DNA from: Chlamydiales bacterium
GTDB taxonomy: Bacteria; Chlamydiota; Chlamydiia; Chlamydiales; JBDQID01
Length of the DNA: 13,365 bases
Assembly (NCBI GenBank): GCA_047611865.1
Contig: JBLFWS010000093.1
Coordinates: 1-13,365, forward strand
Direction: 5' to 3'
Made by a program: the position numbers and the translations under genes. The notes beneath the pieces were generated by a model. That model was not told where the DNA came from, did no database searches, and was given only the letters and a program-made list of their open reading frames with translations. Positions 165 through 13,365 of the stretch are shown in pieces; the stretch's first letter is position 1; each line of letters opens with the position of its first letter.

Positions 165-194
165 TTGACAAGCAGCAGTAAAATATTTAATGAT
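165..194 (+). promoter_or_regulatory. Candidate sigma70/sigma66 promoter for the comB-like gene
   Basis: Perfect TTGACA at 165-170 followed by an AT-rich TATTTAATGAT around 184-194. The -10 box is imperfect. Confidence 0.35.
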
Positions 195-224
195 AGTTTT
201 TTTGGGGGGAAGGGGAATTTCCAA

Positions 225-956
225 ATGGCAGATTATTCTACACAACATAGTCATCTACTTATAGAAAAAGTCTATACATCAAAGTGTGTATCTGAAGATT
301 TTGTGGTGGTCATCGATGTTTTGAGGGCCTTTACTACTGCAGCCTATGCGTTTGCTGCTGGTGCAGAGAAGATACTACTTGTCAAAGAGGTAGAAGAGGC
401 CTTTGCACTAAAAGAGGAGAACCCGGATTTCCTCCTGATAGGAGAGGAAAAGGGCCTTCCTTGTCAGGGATTTGACTATGGGAATTCACCCATACAGTTT
501 ACGGAAAGAAATGTTGCGGGCAGGACTCTTGTCCAAAGGACGTCTTGTGGAACAAAAGGAGTTGTTGGTGCGATTGATTCACGGATAATCCTCGTTTCAA
601 GCTTCGTTGTTGCTGGGGGGACTCTTGAGAGAATAAGATGTCTCTTACCAAACAAGGTGACATTTGTGATGACGGGTGGATCTGACGGGGACGAAGATCT
701 CGCTTTGGCAGATTATCTTGGAGAGAGCTTAATCCAAGGGGGGGGAGATCCTACGCCATATCTTAGGCGTGTGGTTAATTCCCCTGGAGGGAGAAGTTTC
801 GTGGATAAAACAAACGGGAACTTTCCCAGGAAGGACCTGGAGGCAGCTGTACTGCTGGATTTCTTTCCATTTTCTCTAGAAGTTTTTAAAGAAGATATAG
901 GGATTGTCTTGCGTCCTACCCAGTCTGATGGCGCTACTTATGTGTGTCATAAGTAG
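225..956 (+). CDS. comB: ComB-family (2-phosphosulfolactate phosphatase-like) phosphatase
   Basis: Motifs VVVIDVLRAFTT, GEEKG...GFDYGNSP, RTSCGT and ED are typical of ComB. Start moved to ATG 225, which follows a purine-rich GGAAGGGG. The track's TTG at 165 is part of a TTGACA box. Confidence 0.88.
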   Translation: MADYSTQHSHLLIEKVYTSKCVSEDFVVVIDVLRAFTTAAYAFAAGAEKILLVKEVEEAFALKEENPDFLLIGEEKGLPCQGFDYGNSPIQFTERNVAGRTLVQRTSCGTKGVVGAIDSRIILVSSFVVAGGTLERIRCLLPNKVTFVMTGGSDGDEDLALADYLGESLIQGGGDPTPYLRRVVNSPGGRSFVDKTNGNFPRKDLEAAVLLDFFPFSLEVFKEDIGIVLRPTQSDGATYVCHK

Positions 957-1243: not shown

Positions 1244-2524
1244 ATGGCTATTCCAAATAATCTCCTTCCCCCAATAAGTTCATGGCTTGATGGTTTACCC
1301 TTGCCAAATGAAATTTATGATTTTGATCTTGAAGAAAGACCTGTACTTAATGGACCAGAGGACCCCTTTTTATTTGATTTTTCAGGTGGGATTGATTTTA
1401 ACGAATTACTTGACACTCTAAATTATGAACCCACGCCACTTATACCTCAGCGCTTATCAGTAGCCGATTTTAAGATACTTCCACCTCTTGATTGCATGCA
1501 ATTTTTAGTACGGATGTTTGAAGATATTAACAGAAACGGCGGAAAAGAGAACTGTGGGCATTGTGCTATGCAAGTTCATAGGATTTTGAAAGGTACTGAT
1601 ACTTTCGAAGATCTATTTCCGGCGCCAACCGAAAACGCAAATCTTTTTTCTCCTTCTCCTCCTCTTCAAGACAAAAGTACTACTAGGGGTAAGCTGACAG
1701 ACGAGCGGATACTCAGTGTTTGTTTAAAAGCTTTTTCTGAAATAGTTACGATAGATCTTAGAGCAGGGGCTCCTGTTGAGAATATTCAAAGCCTGGATTT
1801 CCCCCAAATCGAAAAAGGAGTTCGACTACCAGTGTGTAATCGAACAGAGCTAACGGGGAAGCTTCTGGATCTACCCAGAAATAAAAATGGTCAGACAAGA
1901 GGCTTTTTGTTTTATACTCATCGTAACAATATTGGAATAGGCCATGTAAATAATTTTTTTGTAAATGGAGATGCTGTCTATTACATAGATGGCCAGAGAC
2001 AGGAATCTAATCCCGTTTCTCTTATCCCGGATTTCAGGAATTTTATGGATGACAGGGTTTGTTACTTACAAGACTCTCAGGATATCCCCTCTACAGAAGA
2101 AGTAGTACTTGTTAAATCAGAATTCGCGGAGCCTCCGCAGGCTAGTTCAGAAGCTGAAGAATGGTTTCTTTTGGGCCTTGTTGAGCAAAACGCTCAAAAA
2201 AGTATTGGATATCTCGGAAAAGCGGCTTTTCTTGAGCATTCTGACGCACAATTTTTTTTATCACAGTTTTGTAAAGACTTTGGAGATCTAGAGCAATCCA
2301 GCAAATGGTTGCTCAAGGCGATACAAAACAAAAATAAAAAAGCCTTGGAGTACCTCAAAGTACTTAACTCGACAGAAGTGCAAGCTCCCACTCTTCCAAG
2401 TAACAAGCGAGGGCTAGATTTGGAAGATGGATCTAGCAGCGGGCAAAGAAAGAAACTTCGGGAGGATGAGGCTAGTCCTCGTAGCCCAAGATCTTCAGCA
2501 TTGTTTGATTTTGCTGCGCCCTAG
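1244..2524 (+). CDS. Putative secreted effector: papain-fold toxin/glutamine-deamidase-like domain + Sel1-like repeats + bipartite NLS
   Basis: NCGHCA..VHRILKG (N103/C104), GHVNN (H234) and YYIDGQ (D249/Q251) match the NC...H...DxQ signature of papain-fold toxin (Tox-PL) domains. Sel1-like segment AEEWFLLG...YLGKAAFLEHSDAQFFL...KWLLKAIQNKNKKA. C-terminal KR-x12-RKKLR. Confidence 0.75.
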   Translation: MAIPNNLLPPISSWLDGLPLPNEIYDFDLEERPVLNGPEDPFLFDFSGGIDFNELLDTLNYEPTPLIPQRLSVADFKILPPLDCMQFLVRMFEDINRNGGKENCGHCAMQVHRILKGTDTFEDLFPAPTENANLFSPSPPLQDKSTTRGKLTDERILSVCLKAFSEIVTIDLRAGAPVENIQSLDFPQIEKGVRLPVCNRTELTGKLLDLPRNKNGQTRGFLFYTHRNNIGIGHVNNFFVNGDAVYYIDGQRQESNPVSLIPDFRNFMDDRVCYLQDSQDIPSTEEVVLVKSEFAEPPQASSEAEEWFLLGLVEQNAQKSIGYLGKAAFLEHSDAQFFLSQFCKDFGDLEQSSKWLLKAIQNKNKKALEYLKVLNSTEVQAPTLPSNKRGLDLEDGSSSGQRKKLREDEASPRSPRSSALFDFAAP

Positions 2525-3020: not shown

Positions 3021-4460
3021 CTAGGAGGGTATAGCAGCCACCTGTTTTTTTTCGGTAATAAATTTTTGCCCGCAATAGGCTGACCAGATCCAGAATATCT
3101 TGATAATGGAGATGGAAATAATGGCTACAGGTAGCGCACTGGAAAGAGTTTGGAAGGTCCCTAAAAGAAATTGAAGGTATATACCTTCGCAGGATTTACC
3201 CAGTTTAGGGCAGAAGCTGTCTACAATGGGTTTTCCTTGCACCTTGGTTTGTAGGGGGAGATAGGTAAAGGCAAGTTCCTTGGATACATCGAAGAAGGTG
3301 TATTTGCAGACGCGGTTTAAAGTAAAGTAGATAGCTCCGAGTCCAACGGTATAATGTAAAAAGATGGGGTCTGCGGAAGCAGAAGCGGAAAAGAAGTAAA
3401 TTAAAATTCCGCAAGGAAGCAAAAGAATGGGGGTCGCTGAGGCGGCTATTCCCCAGGAGAAATACTTTACTATCTGTGCAGCTCCAACAAGGGAAAGCAG
3501 GGTAGAAAATACTCCGATATAAATGGTCACCTGGTTCAGGTACATATTAAAGGCAACGGGATCCGGATGCAGAATACTGAGTTGATTGTACCAGAGTACT
3601 TCCATGAGACTGGTGCTAAAGAAATAAGCACAAGTCATCCACATTAGTGGCCAAAGACCTCTTGTAGAGATTATCTGCTTCAGATGAACGGATAAAGGGG
3701 TTTTGCTGGCGTCGTTCTTGAGTTGCTCTTCTATCACCCCTTGTTCTTGGAAATGATAGCGATACAATAAGTAATAGATGCAAGCAACGATTACTCCCGT
3801 TATCACGATGAAAGTGGCTGTATAGTTAAGGAAATTTTCCCATTTCTCTATGGAGCTGAGGTCAGAGCCGGAGCTGGCCCAAAGGGTAAACTTTCCGGAG
3901 CAAACTCCGGAAAGGTTAGCGAGGAAAATGAGGAAAGGGTATAGCCTTTTCGCTTCTTCAGGGTGGGTCATTCTATTGGCAAAACCCCAGAAGAGCAAAA
4001 GAATGACGGTTGTTCCCCACATCTCAGAGATAATATAAAAAAAGGAGAGGTACCAGTGTCTGAAAATTTCGGAAATGGGTGCCATCCAATTAGGAAGGAG
4101 TTCTTTTAAAAATATCCCGGCAGCGTGCCATTCTATGAGTTCTCGGTTAGGGTAGAATACAAAGAAAAATAGCATGTAGTAGATGAGGAATGGGAAGAAA
4201 ATCATAAAGAAAAGTGCTTTCTGGCTAAACCGGGAAGACAGAGATATGTAACCCACAGAAAATCCCCAGGCAATCGGCAGCAGGAACCACGTTTTAATAA
4301 AAGGTAGTGCCTCAGCTTTTAAATGGGGGTGGGTGACGATAAGAGTTTCTTTAATGTTTCGTAGTAGGTGGTAGTCCGTTGTGAGCAATAAGCACATTAT
4401 TGCCATTGGGAGAAAGCGGAGCATCTCTGAACGGGAAAATGGAAACAAGAATTTTATCAT
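3021..4460 (-). CDS. ntt: Nucleotide transport protein (NTT/TLC ATP/ADP translocase family), divergent paralog
   Basis: Multi-TM 479-aa protein with LLRNIKETL, FIKTW, SEMWG, FWGFANRMT..EEAKRLYP and KYTFFDVSKELAF...KVQGK...D....LGKS. Confidence 0.9.
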   Translation of the reverse strand: MIKFLFPFSRSEMLRFLPMAIMCLLLTTDYHLLRNIKETLIVTHPHLKAEALPFIKTWFLLPIAWGFSVGYISLSSRFSQKALFFMIFFPFLIYYMLFFFVFYPNRELIEWHAAGIFLKELLPNWMAPISEIFRHWYLSFFYIISEMWGTTVILLLFWGFANRMTHPEEAKRLYPFLIFLANLSGVCSGKFTLWASSGSDLSSIEKWENFLNYTATFIVITGVIVACIYYLLYRYHFQEQGVIEEQLKNDASKTPLSVHLKQIISTRGLWPLMWMTCAYFFSTSLMEVLWYNQLSILHPDPVAFNMYLNQVTIYIGVFSTLLSLVGAAQIVKYFSWGIAASATPILLLPCGILIYFFSASASADPIFLHYTVGLGAIYFTLNRVCKYTFFDVSKELAFTYLPLQTKVQGKPIVDSFCPKLGKSCEGIYLQFLLGTFQTLSSALPVAIISISIIKIFWIWSAYCGQKFITEKKQVAAIPS

Positions 4461-4487
4461 TAAGGTATTATACTAGTTATTAATTGT

Positions 4488-5951
4488 TTAATCTTCAGAA
4501 TATTCTAAACGTTTTTTATATAAAAGTGAAAGGATATTAATGGATCGTATCCAAAACAAGCACATAACTACGAGTGTCCCTAATAAATAGATGAATGCTG
4601 AGGAGAAATTGGTAAAAAAGGCGAAAACTCCTTGCTGGATCAAAGAACCGGCAGACTTGCCGAGACGAACGCCCACAACATCTACAGCGGCTTTCCCTTT
4701 TACTTTAGATTCCTGATCTAAGGGAAGGTAAGCCATTTCCTTTGTTGGGTCAAATAATGCGTATTTGATGGATTTGCCGAAAATATTTGTAAGAGAGCCC
4801 AAGACGATCACGAGGAAAAGGAATGAGCTTCCGATTGCCTGTAGCTTAACGTCAAGAAAATTTTCTAAATACACACTGGAGAAGAACGATAGGCCAGAGA
4901 TCAGAATAAAAATTGGAGGTATCAGTGCTCCTATCCTCCACCCAAAGAATCTGAGGCAAAGGCTACCTACGCTCATCAGGAGAATCGTAGAAACTCCAGT
5001 AGCGACAGAGAAATATCCTAAGAGGGTCGTGAATTCATTTTTAGTCTCGGAGTAACTTTCAATGTAGTATTTCCAGGAGATCTCAAGAAGGTTACTAGTA
5101 ACGGCAAAGCAGAGAACCATGACGGCCATATGGCTAAGGTAAGGGGAGTTGGCCACGTGTTTTAGACTGTCTTTGATAGAAAGGGTGGTCTTTTTCTTTG
5201 TTTGGTTTCCCTTTTCCTCTGTATCCATGGGGACAATGTTTTTATTGATATATCTGTAAAGAAATAATATCGCTGTACTAGTCACCAAAAGGATAATGGT
5301 AAAGTAAGCAAAAGAGTGCTCCCAGCTCCTCTGATAGTTTTGCGATGTCTCACGGGATAACAATACGAGAGTGATGCCCCCCATGATCATCCCGAAATCC
5401 GCAATCTGACCAAAGAGAGGATAAAATCTTTTGGCTTGATCTGTGGAAACAAAAGAGTTGGTAAATTGCCAGAAAAGCAGCGAGATCATCACACTGCTCC
5501 ACAACTCAGAAATGAAATAGAAGAAAGTAAAAGGCCAGTATTCTATGAGCACAGCTAGATGATAGAGACCGCCGTGTAAGAAAGAGTCGGGTAGGTATGA
5601 GTAAATGCTTGTCAGCTTAAAGAAGTCCACATAGGGATGGATGACAAACCCAAAAACAGCAAAAACAAGCATGAATGCCAATATTATGCCGCAGAAAATG
5701 CTGCTGGGCTGAAAGTGGTTGCTTAATTTGGAATAGACGAAGAAAAAAACGAACATAAGGGGCAGTACAAACCATGTCTTGACGAATGCCAGGGAGAAAG
5801 CTCCATTGGTCATCACAATCAAAGTGTCTTTTAAGTTGCGCAAGAGGGTGTTACAAAATATGATAAGCAACATTAGAATGGCTAGAGACAAAAACTTTTT
5901 CATCTCATTGTTTTCTATGGGAAATAGGACTTTTCGAAATTTTGAAGTCAT
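4488..5951 (-). CDS. ntt: Nucleotide transport protein (NTT/TLC ATP/ADP translocase family)
   Basis: Multi-TM 487-aa protein with LLRNLKDTL, FVKTW, SELWSS, FWQFTN...AKRFYPLF and near-canonical KYALFDPTKEMAYLPLD...KVKGKAAVDVVGVRLGKS. Confidence 0.93.
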   Translation of the reverse strand: MTSKFRKVLFPIENNEMKKFLSLAILMLLIIFCNTLLRNLKDTLIVMTNGAFSLAFVKTWFVLPLMFVFFFVYSKLSNHFQPSSIFCGIILAFMLVFAVFGFVIHPYVDFFKLTSIYSYLPDSFLHGGLYHLAVLIEYWPFTFFYFISELWSSVMISLLFWQFTNSFVSTDQAKRFYPLFGQIADFGMIMGGITLVLLSRETSQNYQRSWEHSFAYFTIILLVTSTAILFLYRYINKNIVPMDTEEKGNQTKKKTTLSIKDSLKHVANSPYLSHMAVMVLCFAVTSNLLEISWKYYIESYSETKNEFTTLLGYFSVATGVSTILLMSVGSLCLRFFGWRIGALIPPIFILISGLSFFSSVYLENFLDVKLQAIGSSFLFLVIVLGSLTNIFGKSIKYALFDPTKEMAYLPLDQESKVKGKAAVDVVGVRLGKSAGSLIQQGVFAFFTNFSSAFIYLLGTLVVMCLFWIRSINILSLLYKKRLEYSED

Positions 5952-5957
5952 GTTTCT

Positions 5958-8018
5958 CTACTGCAGTTGGGTAAGTATTTTTTTTAGTTTCTGTCGGTCT
6001 GATTCATATCGGAACATAGGGTGACAATTTTCCCATATTTCAAGGAAAGAGTCATCAGGGATTTTTACAGGCGTTTTACCAAAGAAAGCTTTACACTCGG
6101 GAGTATGCTCCCAAGAGATGGATAAAAGACTTTCAAGGAATTCTGGCTTGATAGTAAATCCGCCCAAACATTCAGCTTCTACACCAAGAAAATGCCAGAA
6201 CGCCATAGCCTTTTCGTTAAGATCCTCTGTGGCAGGAGTCCAATAGCGATCATTCTTTTGAGCCCAAGGGACAAAGGGCAAGAGATCCTGGAGAATACCT
6301 GGCAGGGGAGGGCTGAGGGCAAAGGTCGTAGCTCTCTGATCATGATGGGGTATGCAGGCCAGGCTTATGCCTCGTGTGATCCAGTGTATTTTTTCGTATC
6401 GTTTGAGAAGAGGAATGAGGTTTTTAATCTGCTGCTCCCAAACATCCCTACTGAGAGGCAGGGTACTTTCCCCACAGCCCCCGAGGTCGAAGCGATAGGT
6501 ATGAAAACCAAGGTCTACACATTCTCGGGACAGGTCGTGGAAGATATAGTTTAAGCCAGAGCGATTTTCACCCAAGCCATGGAGGAAGACGACAGCTTCT
6601 TTTTTTTCCGATACCCAAGGGAACTGGTGGAGGACGTTAAAGCTCGAAGATGAGAAGGGGACGCTCTCTATCTCGGGGTGGGGGGCATTCTCATGGTGGA
6701 TCGGTTTTGTCATTCCGTGATTCTTTATTACGTTTGAATAATATTCGCCACTGCCTTTTATCGTCCGCTCAAATGTGTCAAAATTTACATGGTGCAGGCC
6801 AAAGCGTTTCTCGTAGCCATGGGCCCATTCGAAATTGTCCAGAAAGGACCACACGAAGTAACCCTTCAGAGGGCCTCCCTCTTCTCTGAAGCGGTGAGCC
6901 TGAGAAAAGTGCTTTTCGAGGTACTCTATCCTTCTGCTGTCATCTTCAACGGATGTGCCATTTTCTGTGATGAAGATCTCTTTGGGGGCATATTCCTTAT
7001 GGAGTCGATCCAGCGTTTGGTAAAGTCCGTCCTTGCTGTAACCCCACATATCCGAAAAGGGATTGAAAAAGGGTTCAAGGATTTGAGTGCTTAGAAGGCT
7101 GTTGCTATCATCAAAGCGAATCTTTAGGGAGGTGTAATAGTTAACGCCTATAAAGTCAGGTTCTTGGGAGATAATAGCAGGGTCTTCTTCGTGGATGAAA
7201 GACTCCATCTCAGGGAACTTGTCACGCAGAACTTTTGGATAAGGGTGACGATAGAGAGGGGCAAGAAAAAATTGGTTGAGATAAGCGTCATGAAGGCCAG
7301 CAGCGGCTTGGTCTTTTGCTTCGGAGCCTTCAATTTCAATAGGGTGTAAGTTGAGAGCTATACCTATTTTAGCGCTGCTGTCTATTTCTCGCATAGCCTG
7401 AACGGCCAGCCCGTGGGATAGCATAAGGTGGTGCCCGGTACTTAAAGCCTTGGAGGCATCTTTTACTCCGGGAGCATGGTCTCCTGTGAGGTGTCCAAGG
7501 ACAGAGACGATGTAGGGTTCATTGTGAGTGACCCAATATTTCACTCTCCGGTGGAAACGGCGGAACACGACCTGGGCATAATGGGCGAAATGATAAGCGG
7601 TCTCTCTCTCGGGCCAGCCTCCTTCGTCCTCTAAAGCCTGAGGTAAATCCCAATGATATAGTGTGACAAAGGGTTCTATTTTGTGCTTGAGGAGACAGTC
7701 GATAATTTTTTCGTAGAATAAGAGTCCTTCTTCGTTGATTTCACCTTTTCCCGAGGGGATTATACGGGGCCATGAGATGGAAAAACGATAGGACTTAAGA
7801 CCTACTTGGGCCATGAGCCTGATGTCTTCTTCAAAGCGGTGGAAATGGTCGGCAGCGACCTTTACGTCGGAAGCGTCCTTGATATTTCCTGGGACGGAAC
7901 AAAATTGATCCCAAATGGACAGGCCTTTGCCTCCTTCATTCCATCCTCCCTCGATTTGAACTGCCGATGTGGCAGATCCCCATAGAAAGTCTATGGGGAA
8001 AGACTTCTTATCTTGCAT
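5958..8018 (-). CDS. GH1 beta-glucosidase fused to a C-terminal alpha/beta-hydrolase domain
   Basis: GH1 (about 8018-6710): FLWGSATSAVQIEG, YRFSISWPRI, TLYHWDLP, acid/base HNEP, nucleophile ITENG, WSFLDNFEW. C-terminal domain (about 6640-5958): FLHGLGENR, YRFDLGGCGES, GISLA, late His (NCHPMF). Confidence 0.92.
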   Translation of the reverse strand: MQDKKSFPIDFLWGSATSAVQIEGGWNEGGKGLSIWDQFCSVPGNIKDASDVKVAADHFHRFEEDIRLMAQVGLKSYRFSISWPRIIPSGKGEINEEGLLFYEKIIDCLLKHKIEPFVTLYHWDLPQALEDEGGWPERETAYHFAHYAQVVFRRFHRRVKYWVTHNEPYIVSVLGHLTGDHAPGVKDASKALSTGHHLMLSHGLAVQAMREIDSSAKIGIALNLHPIEIEGSEAKDQAAAGLHDAYLNQFFLAPLYRHPYPKVLRDKFPEMESFIHEEDPAIISQEPDFIGVNYYTSLKIRFDDSNSLLSTQILEPFFNPFSDMWGYSKDGLYQTLDRLHKEYAPKEIFITENGTSVEDDSRRIEYLEKHFSQAHRFREEGGPLKGYFVWSFLDNFEWAHGYEKRFGLHHVNFDTFERTIKGSGEYYSNVIKNHGMTKPIHHENAPHPEIESVPFSSSSFNVLHQFPWVSEKKEAVVFLHGLGENRSGLNYIFHDLSRECVDLGFHTYRFDLGGCGESTLPLSRDVWEQQIKNLIPLLKRYEKIHWITRGISLACIPHHDQRATTFALSPPLPGILQDLLPFVPWAQKNDRYWTPATEDLNEKAMAFWHFLGVEAECLGGFTIKPEFLESLLSISWEHTPECKAFFGKTPVKIPDDSFLEIWENCHPMFRYESDRQKLKKILTQLQ

Positions 8019-8020
8019 AT

Positions 8021-9169
8021 TTATGCTTCAACCAAGCTTTTGCATTTGGACTGCGCATAAGCCAGGTGATAACCCAAGCCTGCGTAGCGCAAAATGCTTT
8101 CATAATAAAAGTCTCTGAAGGGGTCTCTCTCGCAGCGAGCAAAGAATTCCTCGTGGAGGAAGCCGGGATTTCTCCTGGCGACACCTTCGAAGATATCTTT
8201 AGCGGTGACAAAATCTTCTTGCGCCTGAGCCAGTAGGCCGAGGTTTACTCGTACGTGGTCCAAAATTGGCTCTATTTCAAGGGCCTTGTCGAAAGAGGCT
8301 TTGGCCTCGGAAAAGAGTTGGAGGGAGAGTTGCATGACACCGATCATATTCCACATCAAAGGGTCTTCGGGATTCATTTCCAAAGATTTCTTGTAAGCTT
8401 CAAGAGCTTCTTCATCCTTACCTACAGATCGCAGAACCTGAGCTTGACAGTAGTAGGAGTGGGAGGAGTCAGATCCTAGAGAGACGCTTTTTTCTACAGC
8501 TTCGAGAGCTTCATCGAATTTGCCAAGGGTACGCTGTATCAGGCCAATATATCCTAGTATGCGGTGGTTCTTGGGATCTTGCTTTACTTCTTCTTTCATG
8601 AGGCGCAAGTAATACTCTGCCTTTTTGTCGCGATCGTCAGCTGAGCGGCAGTGGCCAAAGTGATTGAGTACTACGGGAGCATCCAGGATTTCTCCGCCAT
8701 AACGAGTGATGGAGTTTTTAACGGACTCAGCTACAAGGCCTTCGTATCTGATGGTGGGGTCGTTACGGAATAGTTTAAGGTTTTTGGAGGTGTACCATCC
8801 GCCGTTTCCGAAGAAGTTGTAACGCCATACACGGTAGCCTGAGATATTAGAGGGGGAGGATTGAGCTACTTGAAGCAGAGCTTCAGCTTCCTTTTTTTCA
8901 AAACACTCGTCAGCATCAAGGTAGAGCACCCAGGGAGTATCGACAAACTGGAGGGCGTAGTTACGGGCTTCACTGAAATTGTTTTTGAAAGGAACTTCCA
9001 TGACATCAGGGGTGAGACTTCTTGCAATTTCTAAAGTATCATCAGTGGAGCCTGTGTCGACGATAACAATTTTAGAAACGATGGAATCAACACTGCGTAC
9101 GCACTTTTCCAGAAATCTGGATTCGTTTTTTACGATTAAACACAAAGTAAGGGGGCTTTGACTATTCAT
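8021..9169 (-). CDS. GT2 glycosyltransferase with C-terminal TPR repeats
   Basis: LCLIVKNE, VDTGSTDDT, FSEARN and YLDADE (DxD), followed by TPR helices (e.g. YCQAQVLRSVGKDEEALEAYKKSLEMNP). ATG 9169 with an AAGGA RBS is preferred over GTG 9196. Confidence 0.9.
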   Translation of the reverse strand: MNSQSPLTLCLIVKNESRFLEKCVRSVDSIVSKIVIVDTGSTDDTLEIARSLTPDVMEVPFKNNFSEARNYALQFVDTPWVLYLDADECFEKKEAEALLQVAQSSPSNISGYRVWRYNFFGNGGWYTSKNLKLFRNDPTIRYEGLVAESVKNSITRYGGEILDAPVVLNHFGHCRSADDRDKKAEYYLRLMKEEVKQDPKNHRILGYIGLIQRTLGKFDEALEAVEKSVSLGSDSSHSYYCQAQVLRSVGKDEEALEAYKKSLEMNPEDPLMWNMIGVMQLSLQLFSEAKASFDKALEIEPILDHVRVNLGLLAQAQEDFVTAKDIFEGVARRNPGFLHEEFFARCERDPFRDFYYESILRYAGLGYHLAYAQSKCKSLVEA

Positions 9170-9199
9170 ATTATATGTCCTTATTATCTTATTCACCCT

Positions 9200-9931
9200 T
9201 TAGACAAGGGGACTTGTTAGGTTTCCGAGGAAGAGATGCATTTTTTGAGCAAGACAGTTCCGAGCTTCCTCTGTTTCAAATAAGTGGTCGCTATCAGGTA
9301 TGGGTTGAGGGGAAACGCCCAGATCGGCAAGCTCTAAGGCTGCTACTACGACCTTGTGGTCTTTCTCTCCGTAAAACAGGGCGACCGGGACCTTTGCGGG
9401 GAGTGTCTCGCGAGGGGCAATGTGTGAGCGTTCTTCAAAAAAGGCTCTTTTCAGGTAAAGATCATCACCTCGGATTGCTTTCTTCTCACCGCTAAAAGAT
9501 AGTGTCGGCTTGTCGATGATATCGCTGCTGATTAAGAGGACAGCCCGGCAGTTGGCATGGTCAGGGTATACCATCATGGGAATCACACCACCGATGCTGA
9601 TCCCCGCAAGGATCAAGTGCTGAAAAGCTAACTCGGTCTGAACCCAGTGGATCACGTTGTTGAGGTCTTCTGCCATTCCGGAAAAGGTGGTATCTTCGAA
9701 AAGTCCAGAGGAGTCACCAGACCCCCTGAAATCAAAACGCAACACGGCATGGCCTTTCTCTACGAGGTGACGAGAAAGAGTTTCCAATAATTTCTGGTTG
9801 CCGACTTTGTCGCCAGTAAGTCCGTGGCAGAGGATGACGAGCTTATCTGTTGAGTTTGCAGGCTGATCTATCACGAGCGAAAGCCAATATCCAGGTTCTA
9901 CGAGATGAATTCTTTCGCTACGCTTGATCAT
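9200..9931 (-). CDS. Alpha/beta hydrolase (serine esterase type)
   Basis: LCHGLTG, RFDFRGSGDS, nucleophile elbow GISIG, YGEKD (Asp) and SDHLF (His) give an intact triad. ATG 9931 overlaps the upstream TAA (TAATG), consistent with translational coupling. Confidence 0.9.
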   Translation of the reverse strand: MIKRSERIHLVEPGYWLSLVIDQPANSTDKLVILCHGLTGDKVGNQKLLETLSRHLVEKGHAVLRFDFRGSGDSSGLFEDTTFSGMAEDLNNVIHWVQTELAFQHLILAGISIGGVIPMMVYPDHANCRAVLLISSDIIDKPTLSFSGEKKAIRGDDLYLKRAFFEERSHIAPRETLPAKVPVALFYGEKDHKVVVAALELADLGVSPQPIPDSDHLFETEEARNCLAQKMHLFLGNLTSPLV

Positions 9932-11664
9932 TAGGCTAGGGCATCCTTCCATTGTAAACCTGCCTGAACATAGCGCTGTTCCAGCTGAGGCCTGAATTTA
10001 TGCCAGCACTCTTTGGGGAAAAAGTGAACTCGCTTGTCGAAGTTGATGAAAGGGAGATAAACTTCAAAATTGTGTTTATGATCGTCACCGATGAAAAAGA
10101 GGTCCTCATGACAATCCTTACGGAAAGCCCAGTCCTGGATTTCTATGATGGGGTCGCGGTCGTTTGCAGAGAGATCAATGCACAGGGCGTCTTTAGTAGG
10201 AGGCTCTCCTCTCTCGAAATCCTCGAACGTGGCAAAGAAGTCTCCTTTAGTCTCGGGATTGAAGACTTCTTCAAAGAGAGAGAATGCCTGAGGACTCTCT
10301 TCAGGATGCTTGTCCAGAAAGCGCTTTAGATTGCTCTTCCACTGAAGAAAGCGAGCCTGAGAGAAGGATCGGTCATGATAGAGATGGTAGCCTGCGAGTG
10401 CACGAGAATAGGCGAAGCGGCCACCACCCTGATAAAGGCGATAGGCGAAGTCGATGTCTTCAAGGCCCCACCCGGTAAAGTCTTCATCGAATTTACAGTC
10501 TTGGACAAGAGAGGCATCTACCGAGAAATTGCAAGTGTAGGCAAGACTCCAGGGCTTGTTAAGAGAATGAAGGTCAAAATTATAATAACCTAAAAGCTTT
10601 TCGCGGCTATCGAGTCGGGCAAGTTCTGGGGACAGAGTAGTTACAGCTTCCGGGAGGTGCCTTCTGCTCCCAAGGAGAATCAGGTGGTTACTAAGGGCGT
10701 GGGTGCTACGCAGGTTTTCTAGAAAATCACTGGGATAAAGCATGTCTGAGTCGGTGAAGAGGATGATATCGCCAGTAGCCTGCTTCATGCCCTCGTTGCG
10801 GGCGGCGCCGGGGCCTCGGTTGGAGATTTTGATGGCTTGGGCGCCATACTTTTTGGCGACAGCAAAAGAAGCGTCAGTAGAGCCGTCATCCACGACGATA
10901 AGCTCTATCTCGGAGGGATTGATGGTCTGCGCCTTCATGGAACGCAGTGTTAGCTCAAGGTGATCTTCTCTATTATGAACGGGGATGATAACGGAAACTT
11001 TGAGTTTCTTTTGGCCTTGATGATGGAGTATACGCTTTTCTAATTGAGACACGGTCTGAGAGAATTCTGTTAGAGTAGAGTCCCAGACAATGGAATTACT
11101 GCTAAGGCGTAGGGGATTCTCTTTACGAGTCCAGTCCAAGAGATCCCTATCGCGACGCATAATTCTAACGTCTTCATCAGAAAGAGGCATGCCTATGCGT
11201 TGACTTTCTTGAACAGCCCTCCTCAATCGCTCTTCAGGAGACGCAGTAAGAAATATTTTGCAGGAGGCATCGGGGAAGAAGATTCCACCTGTTCGCCCTT
11301 CTACAATCAAGCTGTCTTGAGTAAAATTCTTTTGAATAAATGTCTCTATCCACTCCTGCACCCAGGGCTCCATGGCAAGCTGAGCACAGCGAGCCTCTAA
11401 TGCAGCATCTTGGAATAGCTCCCGATCAAGTAGCTGATTATCGACTTTCGGGAGGTACATAGGGGTTCCGTCATCGGCACTCTCCAGGGACAAACGGAAT
11501 CTACCAGCGTCAACTCTAAAGTCTATACCCCGGAGAGTTCCCCACGCAAGGGCGCGGAATAACATGCCCAGACTGAGAAAACGGCGCTTGAGTTTCTTGG
11601 CAAGACCAAGGCCCACCGCGGTTTTTCCCACACCACTGGGTCCATCAATTGTTATAGCGTCCAT
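9931..11664 (-). CDS. cmk: Cytidylate-kinase-like domain fused to a GT2 glycosyltransferase (577 aa)
   Basis: N-terminus: ITIDGPSGVGKT, EGR...FPDA..KIFLTASPEER, RD..D..R...PL (Cmk fold). From about 11001: VSVIIPVHN, VDDGSTD, GPGAARN, FTDSD, FDEDFTGWGLEDIDFAYRL (GT2 with GT7_C-like tail). ATG 11664 has a GGAGA RBS. The symbol refers to fold only; probably not the housekeeping cmk. Confidence 0.88.
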   Translation of the reverse strand: MDAITIDGPSGVGKTAVGLGLAKKLKRRFLSLGMLFRALAWGTLRGIDFRVDAGRFRLSLESADDGTPMYLPKVDNQLLDRELFQDAALEARCAQLAMEPWVQEWIETFIQKNFTQDSLIVEGRTGGIFFPDASCKIFLTASPEERLRRAVQESQRIGMPLSDEDVRIMRRDRDLLDWTRKENPLRLSSNSIVWDSTLTEFSQTVSQLEKRILHHQGQKKLKVSVIIPVHNREDHLELTLRSMKAQTINPSEIELIVVDDGSTDASFAVAKKYGAQAIKISNRGPGAARNEGMKQATGDIILFTDSDMLYPSDFLENLRSTHALSNHLILLGSRRHLPEAVTTLSPELARLDSREKLLGYYNFDLHSLNKPWSLAYTCNFSVDASLVQDCKFDEDFTGWGLEDIDFAYRLYQGGGRFAYSRALAGYHLYHDRSFSQARFLQWKSNLKRFLDKHPEESPQAFSLFEEVFNPETKGDFFATFEDFERGEPPTKDALCIDLSANDRDPIIEIQDWAFRKDCHEDLFFIGDDHKHNFEVYLPFINFDKRVHFFPKECWHKFRPQLEQRYVQAGLQWKDALA

Positions 11665-11697
11665 ATTAGCTTCTCCAAGTGGAAAAAGAGTTAGGTG

Positions 11698-11726
11698 ATT
11701 ATAGGAAAAGAAAGTGTTCAGTACAA
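11698..11726 (-). promoter_or_regulatory. Sigma70/sigma66 promoter for the kinase-GT-GH1-NTT operon
   Basis: On the minus strand: TTGTAC (11726-11721), 17-nt spacer, perfect TATAAT (11703-11698); 33 nt upstream of ATG 11664. Confidence 0.6.
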
Positions 11727-11782
11727 TAAGAAAGAATGTGTTATGCTTGTTAGCCGAAGTTAGTTTGTAAAAAGGAAATAGC

Positions 11783-12388
11783 ATGAACGGTAATGCTAAA
11801 GCAAAACTTGTAACAATATGTGGGATTGACGGCTCTGGCAAAACAACCTTAGCGGAAAATTTGCAGGAGAGCTGTAGAAAAAAAGGATTAAAAACTTTTC
11901 TTGTACATCCTCTTTCCATACAAGAAGAGCAAAAGCACGTACTCCAAGAGCTCCGAAATGCGGATTTCCCCTCTATAAAACAGAAAGAAAAGGTGCTAGG
12001 CGATTTCTTAAGCTTTTGCTTTCTAAGGAATGTCCTCACAAATGTTCAAGAGGCTATGGAAAACTACGATGTAGTGATATGTGACCGCTACCTGCCCTCA
12101 CACCTGGTAGCCCAAGCCTGCTTCGGCAATAACATGAGGCACCTAAAACCCTGCTTTGCACTCCTCCCAATACCCGATCTATCCATTCTGGTAGATGTAT
12201 CAGTAGATACAGCCCTCGAACGTATCGGCGCCAGAAAAAACATCATGATGCACGAAAATAGAGAATACCTCGGAAATGCCAGGCTCCACTACCTGAAACA
12301 GGCCAAACTCTCCAAGCTAACCGTAGTAGACGGGGCAAGCCCTCCCGACGAGATATTAAAGAGAGCTCTCGAGCAACTGGGCATCTAA
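11783..12388 (+). CDS. tmk: Thymidylate-kinase-like nucleoside monophosphate kinase
   Basis: P-loop CGIDGSGKTT, VICDRY..S, PDLSILVDV...ALERI..R; AAGGA RBS upstream. Divergent from the operon; base-binding motifs are atypical. Confidence 0.85.
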   Translation: MNGNAKAKLVTICGIDGSGKTTLAENLQESCRKKGLKTFLVHPLSIQEEQKHVLQELRNADFPSIKQKEKVLGDFLSFCFLRNVLTNVQEAMENYDVVICDRYLPSHLVAQACFGNNMRHLKPCFALLPIPDLSILVDVSVDTALERIGARKNIMMHENREYLGNARLHYLKQAKLSKLTVVDGASPPDEILKRALEQLGI

Positions 12389-12422: not shown

Positions 12423-13188
12423 CATACGTATCAACCTAAAAATTTAAAGTGATATAAATAAAGAATTTAAGGTAAAAAGCCTCTAACTAGAAACCGACTA
12501 AAGCATTCAAGTTAGAGGTAAAAATGCATTTTGAAGATAGGCTAGAAGATATTTCATCAAAAATCAAGACAATTTTCGCTCAACATTCACTGGATACCTT
12601 TGCCAAAGAAACAAATTTCATACAGCGTTCGACATCCAGGGTTAATCCACTAAACTTTCTAATCCTTATGGTTGTTCATATTACCCTGAATGCCTTGCAC
12701 TCTCTTGAGACCATGACAGAGATACTTGGAGGGCTTTCAGGAGGTGTTAAAATTTCCTCTCAAGCACTATCTAAGTATCTCAATCGTAACTTTACTGTTA
12801 GATACCTACGCAGATGTTACGGCCACCTTTTGCAGAATTGGACATCTGATAGCATGGATAAACTTAAACAAAAAGGCCTTCTCAAGGGATTTAAAAAGGT
12901 TTTCATTGAAGATAGTACTTCATGTGAATTGCACGAACAACTCGCAGAGGCTTTTAAGGGTAGCGGTGGATGTGCTTCCAAAGCTGGATATAAAATCCAT
13001 CTGACTTGGGAAGCTATTTCTGGACATATTGAGGACCTTAAAATTACAGCAGGTTCAGTTCCAGATCAGGCTATGGCTAGTCAAATTCTCAATAGAATAG
13101 GACAAGGTGACCTCATAATTCGTGATCTCGCTTATTTTATTTTACCGATTTTGAAAAAATAGCCGAACTAGGGGCCTTTTTTTTAAGC
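12423..13188 (+). mobile_element. IS4-family (IS231-like) insertion sequence, left part
   Basis: Left end CATACGTATCAACCTAAAAA resembles the IS231 IR as I recall it (CATGCCCATCAACTTAAG). It is preceded by a GGG(N)5CCC site and followed by an IS4-type transposase ORF. Confidence 0.75.
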
Positions 13189-13191: not shown

Positions 13192-13365
13192 CGATTCAAT
13201 TCTGAAGTGCGACATTTAGGCAGCCTCACTAAGGGGGATAAAAACCTCTATAGGTGTGGAAAAGTTTAACACTTTTCGAGGTCTGTTGTTAAGCAGTATT
13301 TCTACCTCCATTAATTCATTTGCTGATACCTCATCAAAACGTTTAGATTTGGGAAAGTACTGCCT
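13189..13365 (-). mobile_element. IS30-family insertion sequence, right end (partial)
   Basis: The transposase stop is followed at once by an IS30-like terminal sequence (+ strand CGCCGATTCAATTCTGAAGTGCGACA). The exact boundary is uncertain by a few nt. Confidence 0.8.
13216..13365 (-). CDS. IS30-family transposase C-terminus (partial)
   Basis: Minus-strand translation RQYFPKSKRFDEVSANELMEVEILLNNRPRKVLNFSTPIEVFIPLSEAA* carries the IS30 motifs RQYFPK and LNxRPRKxLxxxTP. Not in the ORF track. Confidence 0.9.
   Translation of the reverse strand, partial: RQYFPKSKRFDEVSANELMEVEILLNNRPRKVLNFSTPIEVFIPLSEAA

Follow-up and report, generated by a model that had tools for sequence, protein, structure and literature searches.

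Environmental chlamydiae, which inhabit eukaryotic cells, obtain nucleotides from their hosts via NTT carriers. Among the described systems closest to the locus reported here is that of nucleocidin, for which the available text of two reports describes GT2 glycosyltransferases that glucosylate the 3'-OH of a nucleoside and a beta-glucosidase that removes the glucose (PMC11959488; PMC7017864). Our locus lies in a stretch of 13,365 nt (the window) of contig JBLFWS010000093.1, from a Chlamydiales bacterium, and was analysed computationally. The original prediction for this stretch was a system that glycosylates, deglycosylates, and transports a nucleoside or nucleotide, with the nucleocidin enzymes as its precedent; as far as the available portions of these sources go, that precedent holds, NucGT-type enzymes being GT2 members and NucGS a beta-glucosidase (PMC11959488; PMC7017864). 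The window carries a horizontally mobile core of five parts, named here ab2, Tmk-like, Cmk::GT2, ab1, and GT2-TPR, which by sequence comparison form a module recurring in at least three phyla and new here. No published description of the gene combination, the NTT arrangement, or the module was found among open-access papers and preprints. Our best guess, with the function unproven, is a glycosylation and deglucosylation cycle acting on a non-canonical nucleotide, to which we give a probability of about 0.35.

The six minus-strand genes and the single divergent plus-strand tmk-like gene were recognised from the open reading frame (ORF) listing and domain scans. Cmk::GT2 (9931..11664, minus strand) combines a Cmk-like kinase, a K4CP-like GT-A domain, and a C-terminal domain of unknown kind. 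It is followed on the same strand by ab1 (9200..9931), an a/b-hydrolase with intact catalytic motifs whose start shares 1 nt with the Cmk::GT2 stop; by GT2-TPR (8021..9169), the best-conserved part of the module; and by a 686-aa fusion protein (5958..8018) made of an N-terminal GH1 beta-glucosidase domain (6702..8018) and ab2, a C-terminal pseudo-a/b-hydrolase domain (5958..6701) that is itself a module part. The last two minus-strand genes encode carriers of the TLC/NTT family, namely NTT-b (487 aa; 4488..5951), which begins 6 nt past the GH1 stop, and the divergent family member NTT-a (479 aa; 3021..4460). The Tmk-like P-loop kinase (11783..12388, plus strand), also a module part, is transcribed divergently from the other six. 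The junctions between the six genes, read directly in the sequence, are a 1-nt overlap (TAATG) and gaps of 30, 2, 6, and 27 nt. ORFs, domain scores, and junctions thus confirmed the predicted co-directional genes with their gaps and domains, the divergent tmk-like gene, and an operon-like packing with an overlap or gaps of at most 30 nt. The G+C content at third codon positions (GC3) is 0.46-0.54 in all seven genes, compared with 0.31-0.42 in the flanks (0.31-0.42 in left-flank genes and 0.31 in an IS4 fragment), and because they share this composition, unlike the flanks, the seven genes look like one island. The unit they form is compact and coherent in composition, and transposase remnants mark its right border. 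The genes themselves lie far beyond chance, given their strong family scores and an order conserved in two other phyla.

This conserved order was revealed by a scan of genome contigs with the Cmk::GT2 alignment, which kept 80 loci; 78 of these were ordinary cmk genes and two, L001 and L002, were informative, giving at least two module loci. L001 lies on a contig of a 'Bacillota' metagenome-assembled genome (MAG; GC 31-35%), and its Cmk::GT2 is identical to public protein P0010. It carries, on one strand and in this order, ab2 (229 aa), Tmk-like, Cmk::GT2, ab1, and GT2-TPR, the last four being 28%, 37-38%, 42%, and 46% identical to their counterparts in the window. L002, from an Acidimicrobiia MAG, has the same part order, ab2 and the Tmk-like kinase being joined in one protein, and its identities to the window are 28% (Tmk-like), 27% (Cmk-like), 41% (ab1), and 48% (GT2-TPR); both GT2-TPR values extend over 367 residues. 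In both loci the Tmk-like gene immediately precedes Cmk::GT2 and shares its strand, whereas in the window it is divergent. The ab2 domain was traced by all-against-all BLAST to the stand-alone protein at L001 8669-9358 (35% identity, E 4e-32) and to the N-terminal half of L002 2097-3431 (32% identity, E 1e-28). The latter ORF (plus strand) encodes the pseudo-hydrolase fused to the Tmk-like kinase. At L002 3326-4654 (plus strand), stretches holding conserved motifs are missing from the GT2 half of the fusion with Cmk; with this fused GT2 degraded, GT2-TPR is the one glycosyltransferase intact everywhere.

In these comparisons, the five parts are conserved and are joined differently in different genomes. 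The physical links comprise Cmk with GT2 (14 protein clusters), ab2 with Tmk (L002), and GH1 with ab2 (the window and proteins P0121 and P0196). Two kinases, two GT2 enzymes, and two hydrolase-fold proteins are thus co-conserved in order in three phyla, which indicates that tmk belongs to the system, as had been proposed. The co-conservation expected for the whole set stood for the five parts, which occur in order in L001 and L002, and failed for the NTTs; neither NTT nor GH1 is present in the stored sequence of these two loci. Plasmids held no close relative in tblastn searches, in which the best GT2-TPR places were 26-29% identical and none of the 709 records covered 80% of the Cmk::GT2 query.

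The start of Cmk::GT2 was placed at the ATG at 11664 and not at the GTG at 12039, in agreement with the N-termini of 13 homologues; a longer frame (9931-12039, minus strand) would overlap tmk and finds no support in these N-termini. Public protein P0001, identical to the window's Cmk::GT2, is recorded at 617 aa, which is 40 residues longer than the 11664 form; its start would run into the first bases of tmk and is likewise not borne out by the 13 homologues. In Pfam, the protein scores 100.4 bits against Cytidylate_kin and 96.9 bits against Glycos_transf_2. The fusion occurs in 14 protein clusters, including the window's own, with the 13 others at 36-82% identity and two of these bearing names from chlamydial MAGs. 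In an AlphaFold2 (AF2) model (pLDDT 90.2, pTM 0.89), the Cmk domain fold superposes on 2cmk with a TM-score of 0.83. The P-loop lysine K18, R41, D185, and R188 are retained in the Cmk domain of 14/14 fusions, and R131 and R181 in 13/14. In Cmk, Ser36, Arg110, and Asp132 contact cytosine, and the roles of the phosphate and ribose residues are likewise given, in the portion of the report available (PMC3603445). Of these cytosine-reading residues, S/T36 is kept in none of the 14 fusions, D132 in none, and R110 in seven, compared with 78/78, 77/78, and 78/78 in the 78 ordinary Cmk proteins (L003-L080) that served as control. The domain also scores 81.7 against the (d)CMP kinase equivalog TIGR00017, below the cutoff of 135.55. 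In a quick tree supported by the approximate likelihood-ratio test SH-aLRT only, without bootstrap and with long-branch warnings, a long branch separates a single clade of the 15 module kinase domains from the 78 ordinary Cmk (SH-aLRT 99). The base pocket therefore looks remodelled, being still nucleotide-like and apparently no longer cytidine-like. A pathway for a modified nucleotide would need a changed base pocket, and the comparison of 14 fusions with 78 ordinary Cmk shows that the Cmk domain has one. The Tmk-like protein scores 70.9 bits against Pfam Thymidylate_kin, above the cutoff of 27, and 73.8 against the dTMP kinase equivalog TIGR00041, below the cutoff of 83.25; its P-loop and D-R-Y motifs occur in all three copies (window, L001, and L002), and a protein atlas confirmed the family.

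The glycosyltransferases point in more than one direction. In the GT2 domain fused to the kinase, the DxD and E-D motifs are present in 14/14 proteins, and its nearest relatives by sequence and fold are the chondroitin polymerase K4CP, followed by the teichoic-acid glycosyltransferases TarS, TarP, and RmlT. It scores 117.9 bits against the NCBIfam family EpsD, below the cutoff of that family. A protein atlas search with residues 436-577 of Cmk::GT2 gave no lead (best score 0.78). The second enzyme, GT2-TPR, scores 67.9 bits against Glycos_transf_2 in Pfam and carries TPR repeats. Its best sequence matches in the PDB are the glycosyltransferase domain of GmaR (E 1.4e-25) and SunS (E 4.7e-21), and Foldseek ranks 1-6 are all SunS or ThuS, with 323-392 aligned columns, although the searched model, built from three sequences, has only moderate confidence (pLDDT 69.5, and below 50 in the tail). 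It shows the SunS-type architecture, in which a GT-A domain precedes a domain of helical repeats.

These matches raise the possibility of polypeptide glycosylation, which we consider somewhat unlikely. GT2-TPR would hexosylate Ser, Thr, or Cys, the K4CP-like GT2 would add a second sugar, and the chlamydial GH1 would erase the modification, as an OGT/OGA-like pair of writer and eraser for O-beta-glucose; the NTTs would supply nucleotides, and the role of the kinases would be to serve the donor on its nucleotide side, or else to phosphorylate the peptide or the glycan. SunS and ThuS are the only structural matches over the whole architecture, and TPR domains usually bind proteins. However, GT2-TPR scores 70.1 against the SunS family TIGR04195, whose cutoff is 350. 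In addition, identity across phyla is 39-44% in the TPR region and 44-57% in the C-terminal tail, compared with 49-52% in the catalytic domain; a TPR region and tail nearly as conserved as the catalytic domain suggest a conserved partner and not a variable peptide, so the recognition half differs in this from readers of variable peptides. Polypeptide glycosylation also leaves without a role the two conserved parts with a nucleoside monophosphate (NMP) kinase fold and the remodelled, otherwise intact nucleotide pocket.

The surroundings of the module in the other two phyla bear on the same question. Both L001 and L002 sit inside larger clusters of tailoring enzymes, with NTP_transf_5, a weakly GNAT-like protein, a PCMT-like methyltransferase, and a luciferase-like monooxygenase common to the two, and L002 additionally encodes an M16 peptidase and a family-5 binding protein (SBP_bac_5). 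Several of these (NTP_transf_5, the PCMT-like methyltransferase, the M16 peptidase, and the peptide-type binding protein) are often seen with modified peptides, and the available text of one report describes a lasso peptide whose phosphorylation and subsequent hexosylation need a kinase and an 'uncharacterized nucleotidyltransferase' (PMC6993621). A 41-aa ORF at L001 4535-4660 (plus strand), directly upstream of NTP_transf_5, holds three repeats of the type GDAPV(I/V)xK and is a possible precursor peptide; it has no counterpart in the window or L002, and no precursor-like small ORF common to the window, L001, and L002 was found. The genes shared by L001 and L002 are all absent from the window, where peptide-tailoring genes are likewise lacking. 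Among the shared genes is one encoding a 374-aa protein of no family (L001 7540-8664 and L002 959-2104, both plus strand; 61% identity), directly upstream of the module, for which a weak radical-SAM-like match (E about 1e-3) was the only one obtained and no PDB sequence match was found. Downstream of GT2-TPR in L001, about 900 nt without a long ORF extend to the end of the stored locus, and the contig continues for about 600 nt.

The wider family of GT2-TPR was surveyed by a profile search of 1.84 billion representatives, which returned many long multi-repeat proteins. Among the best 150 matches, 28 proteins were shorter than 700 aa, and about 25 distinct full-length relatives were present in this library clustered at 50% identity. 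The top dozen relatives per query were 37-54% identical, 11 of them nearly full-length and one a 308-aa fragment. Protein P0310 (642 aa) is a full-length relative, 42% identical to the window's protein, with a C-terminal acyl-CoA thioesterase (4HBT_3) domain. This fusion hints at thioester chemistry somewhere in the pathway.

The original prediction named two esterases, of which one stood. The ab1 protein scores 54.9 bits against Abhydrolase_1 and 48.4 bits against Hydrolase_4 in Pfam, and the G-x-S-x-G motif with the D-H pair is found as GISIGG/DH in the window and GLSIGG/DH in L001, which identifies it at the level of motifs as a predicted active serine hydrolase. It weakly resembles exosortase-associated hydrolases in NCBIfam. 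The second protein, ab2, has a Pfam hydrolase score of 20.4 bits, below the cutoff of 25.8; its nucleophile position holds S in the window, G in L001, and A in L002, and the His column is not kept. Without a conserved nucleophile or His it is probably not a hydrolase, and is probably inactive as one.

The likeness of ab1 to exosortase-associated hydrolases, the thioesterase fusion of P0310, and the kinship of the fused GT2 with glycan builders (K4CP, TarP, TarS, and RmlT, together with the sub-cutoff EpsD score) would all suit another type of glycoconjugate as the product, for example a glycolipid, a short polysaccharide, or an acylated sugar. A lipid or acyl carrier would then receive a di- or oligosaccharide assembled by the pair of GT2 enzymes, with ab1 as an acyl hydrolase or thioesterase and the kinases recycling NMP by-products. 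This we regard as improbable. GT2 reactions release nucleoside diphosphate (NDP), not NMP, so NMP kinases would not be needed for recycling, and the base pocket of the kinase is changed and not ordinary. Moreover, the module proteins all look cytoplasmic, and the window, L001, and L002 hold no gene for a membrane-spanning glycosyltransferase, flippase, polymerase, acyl carrier, or lipid-linked primer.

The GH1 domain scores 520 bits in Pfam over residues 4-435 and 532 against the beta-glucosidase equivalog TIGR03356, exceeding the 478.5 cutoff. Identity to ordinary bacterial GH1 is about 50%, and the translation contains the motifs NEP and ENG, which we take to be the catalytic Glu motifs of GH1, and shows no signal-like stretch at the N-terminus. 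As the C-terminal half of the protein is ab2, GH1 is physically fused to a part of the module, a joining of beta-glucosidase and ab2 that took place in the chlamydial branch. The ab2 extension was present in two of the 120 listed GH1 matches, P0121 (78% identity) and P0196 (40%). The longest contigs of P0121 and of the Cmk::GT2 protein P0002 are equal in size (11140), as are those of P0196 and of the Cmk::GT2 protein P0007 (18807). A 7-row subclade of the kinase tree unites P0002 and P0007 with the window and also includes the protein named from a Chlamydiota MAG. Since P0002 and P0007, size-matched to the two further fusions, group with the window, the GH1-ab2 fusion is probably old in this chlamydial branch. 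The proposed membership of GH1 in the system is thus borne out by its fusion to a module part and by the two size-matched fusions; L001 and L002 have no GH1.

Both carriers are members of TLC (PF03219; cutoff 21), NTT-a with 324.5 bits over its full length and NTT-b with 456.8 bits. The cutoff of TIGR00769 (387.2) is exceeded by NTT-b (395.6) and not reached by NTT-a (298.9), and the two are 29% identical to each other. NTT-b matches the solved NTT chains 9j3n (E 1.6e-96) and 9j3j (E 1.5e-89). Among 52 proteins compared in each case, NTT-b is at most 38.6% identical to any, and NTT-a has one close relative (P0241, 88%) with the other 51 at 33% or less. The longest contig of P0241 (11140) has the same size as those of P0002 and P0121, and on this size-matched relative the identity to the window is 88% for NTT-a, 82% for Cmk::GT2, and 78% for GH1. 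With co-location taken from equal contig sizes, the two divergent NTTs follow in the same operon in this genus only. The NTTs had been predicted as a co-conserved part of the system, and this was contradicted by their absence from L001 and L002 and by the single close relative of NTT-a among its 52 matches.

It may therefore be that there is no single seven-gene pathway, the module with GH1 forming one unit and the NTTs being ordinary chlamydial importers placed downstream by chance. We rate this separately, as it cuts across the nucleotide and polypeptide readings, and regard it as unlikely. Chlamydiae have several NTT paralogues for general nucleotide parasitism, and none of the 52 NTT-a matches lies on a contig sized like those of the other 11 Cmk::GT2 proteins. 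The close packing of the carriers speaks for their belonging, with gaps of 6 and 27 nt and a terminator-like site in neither, as does their GC3 of 0.48-0.50 (NTT-a 0.496), which lies within the module range and differs from the flanks. The 88% relative of NTT-a occurs on a contig equal in size to that relative's module contig, and both carriers are distant from other NTTs.

Taken together, the conserved fused kinases, the altered pocket, the NTTs, and the nucleocidin precedent for a GT2 enzyme and a beta-glucosidase favour a modified-nucleotide pathway. In such a pathway, the two kinase-like parts would bind and phosphorylate a non-cytidine, non-canonical nucleoside phosphate. GT2-TPR would beta-glycosylate that nucleotide, or a molecule carried on it, and the kinase-fused GT2 would extend the glycosylated product. 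An ester or thioester would be cleaved by ab1, and GH1 would take the beta-glucose off again. The NTTs may import a nucleotide precursor or move the product, and the TPR part and the pseudo-hydrolase would hold the enzymes together with no protein substrate bound. Of the predicted nucleotide glycosylation and transport system, the packing, the module, the fusion, and the pocket were upheld, whereas the co-conservation of the NTTs, the kinship with NucGT, and the second esterase were not.

Several results weigh against this nucleotide cycle. The best PDB and Foldseek matches of GT2-TPR are peptide or protein glycosyltransferases, the fused GT2 is closest to K4CP, and neither enzyme has a specific likeness to NucGT or AvpGT. 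The sequence match to AvpGT (E 5.6e-9) is limited to query residues 10-101 and stands at rank 13 of 19, which indicates generic GT2 likeness. A Streptomyces GT2 relative, P0024, was considered as a link to NucGT/AvpGT and rejected, K4CP again being its best match. In the accessible text of the nucleocidin work, NucGT did not accept a charged 5'-sulfate (PMC7017864), so a nucleotide acceptor is without direct precedent. To these are added the peptide-associated neighbours and the repeat ORF of the other loci, the lack of NTT and GH1 in L001 and L002, the NTT-a matches that do not follow the remaining Cmk::GT2 contigs, and the fact that the co-location of P0002, P0007, P0121, P0196, and P0241 is taken from equal longest-contig sizes only; the NTTs may simply be neighbours of the module. 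The nucleotide and polypeptide readings are both what we infer from these data. We place the nucleotide slightly ahead of the polypeptide because of the absence of a shared small ORF, the absence of peptide-tailoring genes in the window, and the conserved recognition half of GT2-TPR.

A bolder form of the nucleotide reading is a mobile pathway for a glycosylated non-canonical nucleotide or nucleotide-linked metabolite, which in this chlamydial lineage is coupled to a dedicated deglucosylase and to two NTTs, with the glyco-nucleotide or its precursor as the cargo they carry over the bacterial membrane. We hold this to be quite doubtful. If true, it would provide the first NTT with a glyco-nucleotide or its precursor as substrate, and the product would be the first small-molecule signal or antimetabolite of nucleotide origin that a chlamydia makes to be used within its host cell. 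If the seven genes form one pathway, nucleotide transport would have a new use, in making or salvaging a modified nucleotide rather than in importing energy or building blocks. The fusions (kinase with GT2, pseudo-hydrolase with kinase, pseudo-hydrolase with GH1, and GT2-TPR with thioesterase) offer experimental handles, and the altered Cmk domain is a test case for a change of base specificity in an NMP kinase.

Regulatory signals and flanking genes were also inspected. A promoter-like TTGTAC-17 nt-TATAAT (11698..11726, minus strand) was seen by eye in the 118 nt between the divergent genes; its -10 element is perfect and its -35 element weak. It is absent from the scan-tool output, which counted 13 promoter-like sites in the window against 13.8 +/- 3.1 in shuffled sequences; as this count does not exceed the shuffles, the site is not beyond chance, and the "one clear promoter" claimed earlier is reduced to a match by eye. 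Terminator-like sites (14 against 10.8 in shuffles) were likewise not above shuffled sequence, and scans of the window with Rfam at the gathering threshold and for tRNA gave no matches. To the right of the island, a truncated IS4-family transposase (12524-13162, plus strand; 212 aa, profile positions 2-193 of 332, GC3 0.31) is accompanied by an open-ended ORF fragment of 49 aa without a Pfam match (13216-13365, minus strand). To the left lie a 426-aa protein with no family match (1244-2524, plus strand; best Sel1 repeat, E 0.38), whose C-terminal stretch is rich in Ser, Lys, and Arg and whose GC3 (0.31) sets it apart from the island, and a member of the 2-phosphosulfolactate phosphatase (ComB) family (165-956, plus strand), with 126 bits in Pfam and far below every NCBIfam equivalog cutoff. 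PADLOC identified no anti-phage defence system; seven of nine proteins were without any match, and the weak single-protein matches comprised Tmk-like to PDC-M51B (1.6e-11), five weaker ones, and one TPR match.

Comparison with known systems places the locus between several of them. The clusters of NucGT/NucGS (nucleocidin) and of the GT2-type nucleoside 3'-O-beta-glucosyltransferases AvpGT/ScaGT likewise hold a GT2 enzyme and a beta-glucosidase in one cluster with nucleotide-handling genes, and AvpGT (9jma/9jn3) aligns with the Cmk::GT2 AF2 model at a TM-score of 0.63-0.64 by target length. However, the identity is 20-22%, and the sequence match is confined to the first 100 residues, as generic GT2 likeness would give. 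NucGT, in the available text of its report, stands alone as an enzyme of 35.5 kDa whose substrates are uncharged nucleosides (PMC7017864), whereas in our locus the GT2 is joined to a kinase, and the window adds to the NucGT-type set a TPR-bearing GT2, two hydrolase-fold proteins, and NTTs. The glycocin S-glycosyltransferases SunS and ThuS and the Listeria flagellin O-GlcNAc transferase GmaR have the same build as GT2-TPR and are its best matches. These systems differ in that GT2-TPR falls far below the SunS cutoff (70.1 vs 350) and that the window lacks a precursor peptide, a C39 exporter, disulfide enzymes, and flagellin genes. The first glycosyltransferase domain of E. coli K4 K4CP is the best match to the fused GT2, including the DxD motif and the G-W-G-x-E-D region; K4CP has two such domains and polymerises a glycosaminoglycan, whereas Cmk::GT2 has one together with a kinase and a C-terminal domain of unknown kind. 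The bacterial (d)CMP kinases (E. coli and Yersinia Cmk) share with the module their fold (TM-score 0.83 to 2cmk), P-loop, and phosphate and ribose residues. They differ from the module domains, which replace S36 and D132 in 14/14 and R110 in 7/14, score below the equivalog cutoff, and form a separate long-stemmed clade. Finally, NTT-a and NTT-b are full-length TLC members, like the NTT/TLC carriers of chlamydiae, rickettsiae, and plastids, but they are distant from these and lie in an operon with glycosyltransferases and a glucosidase.

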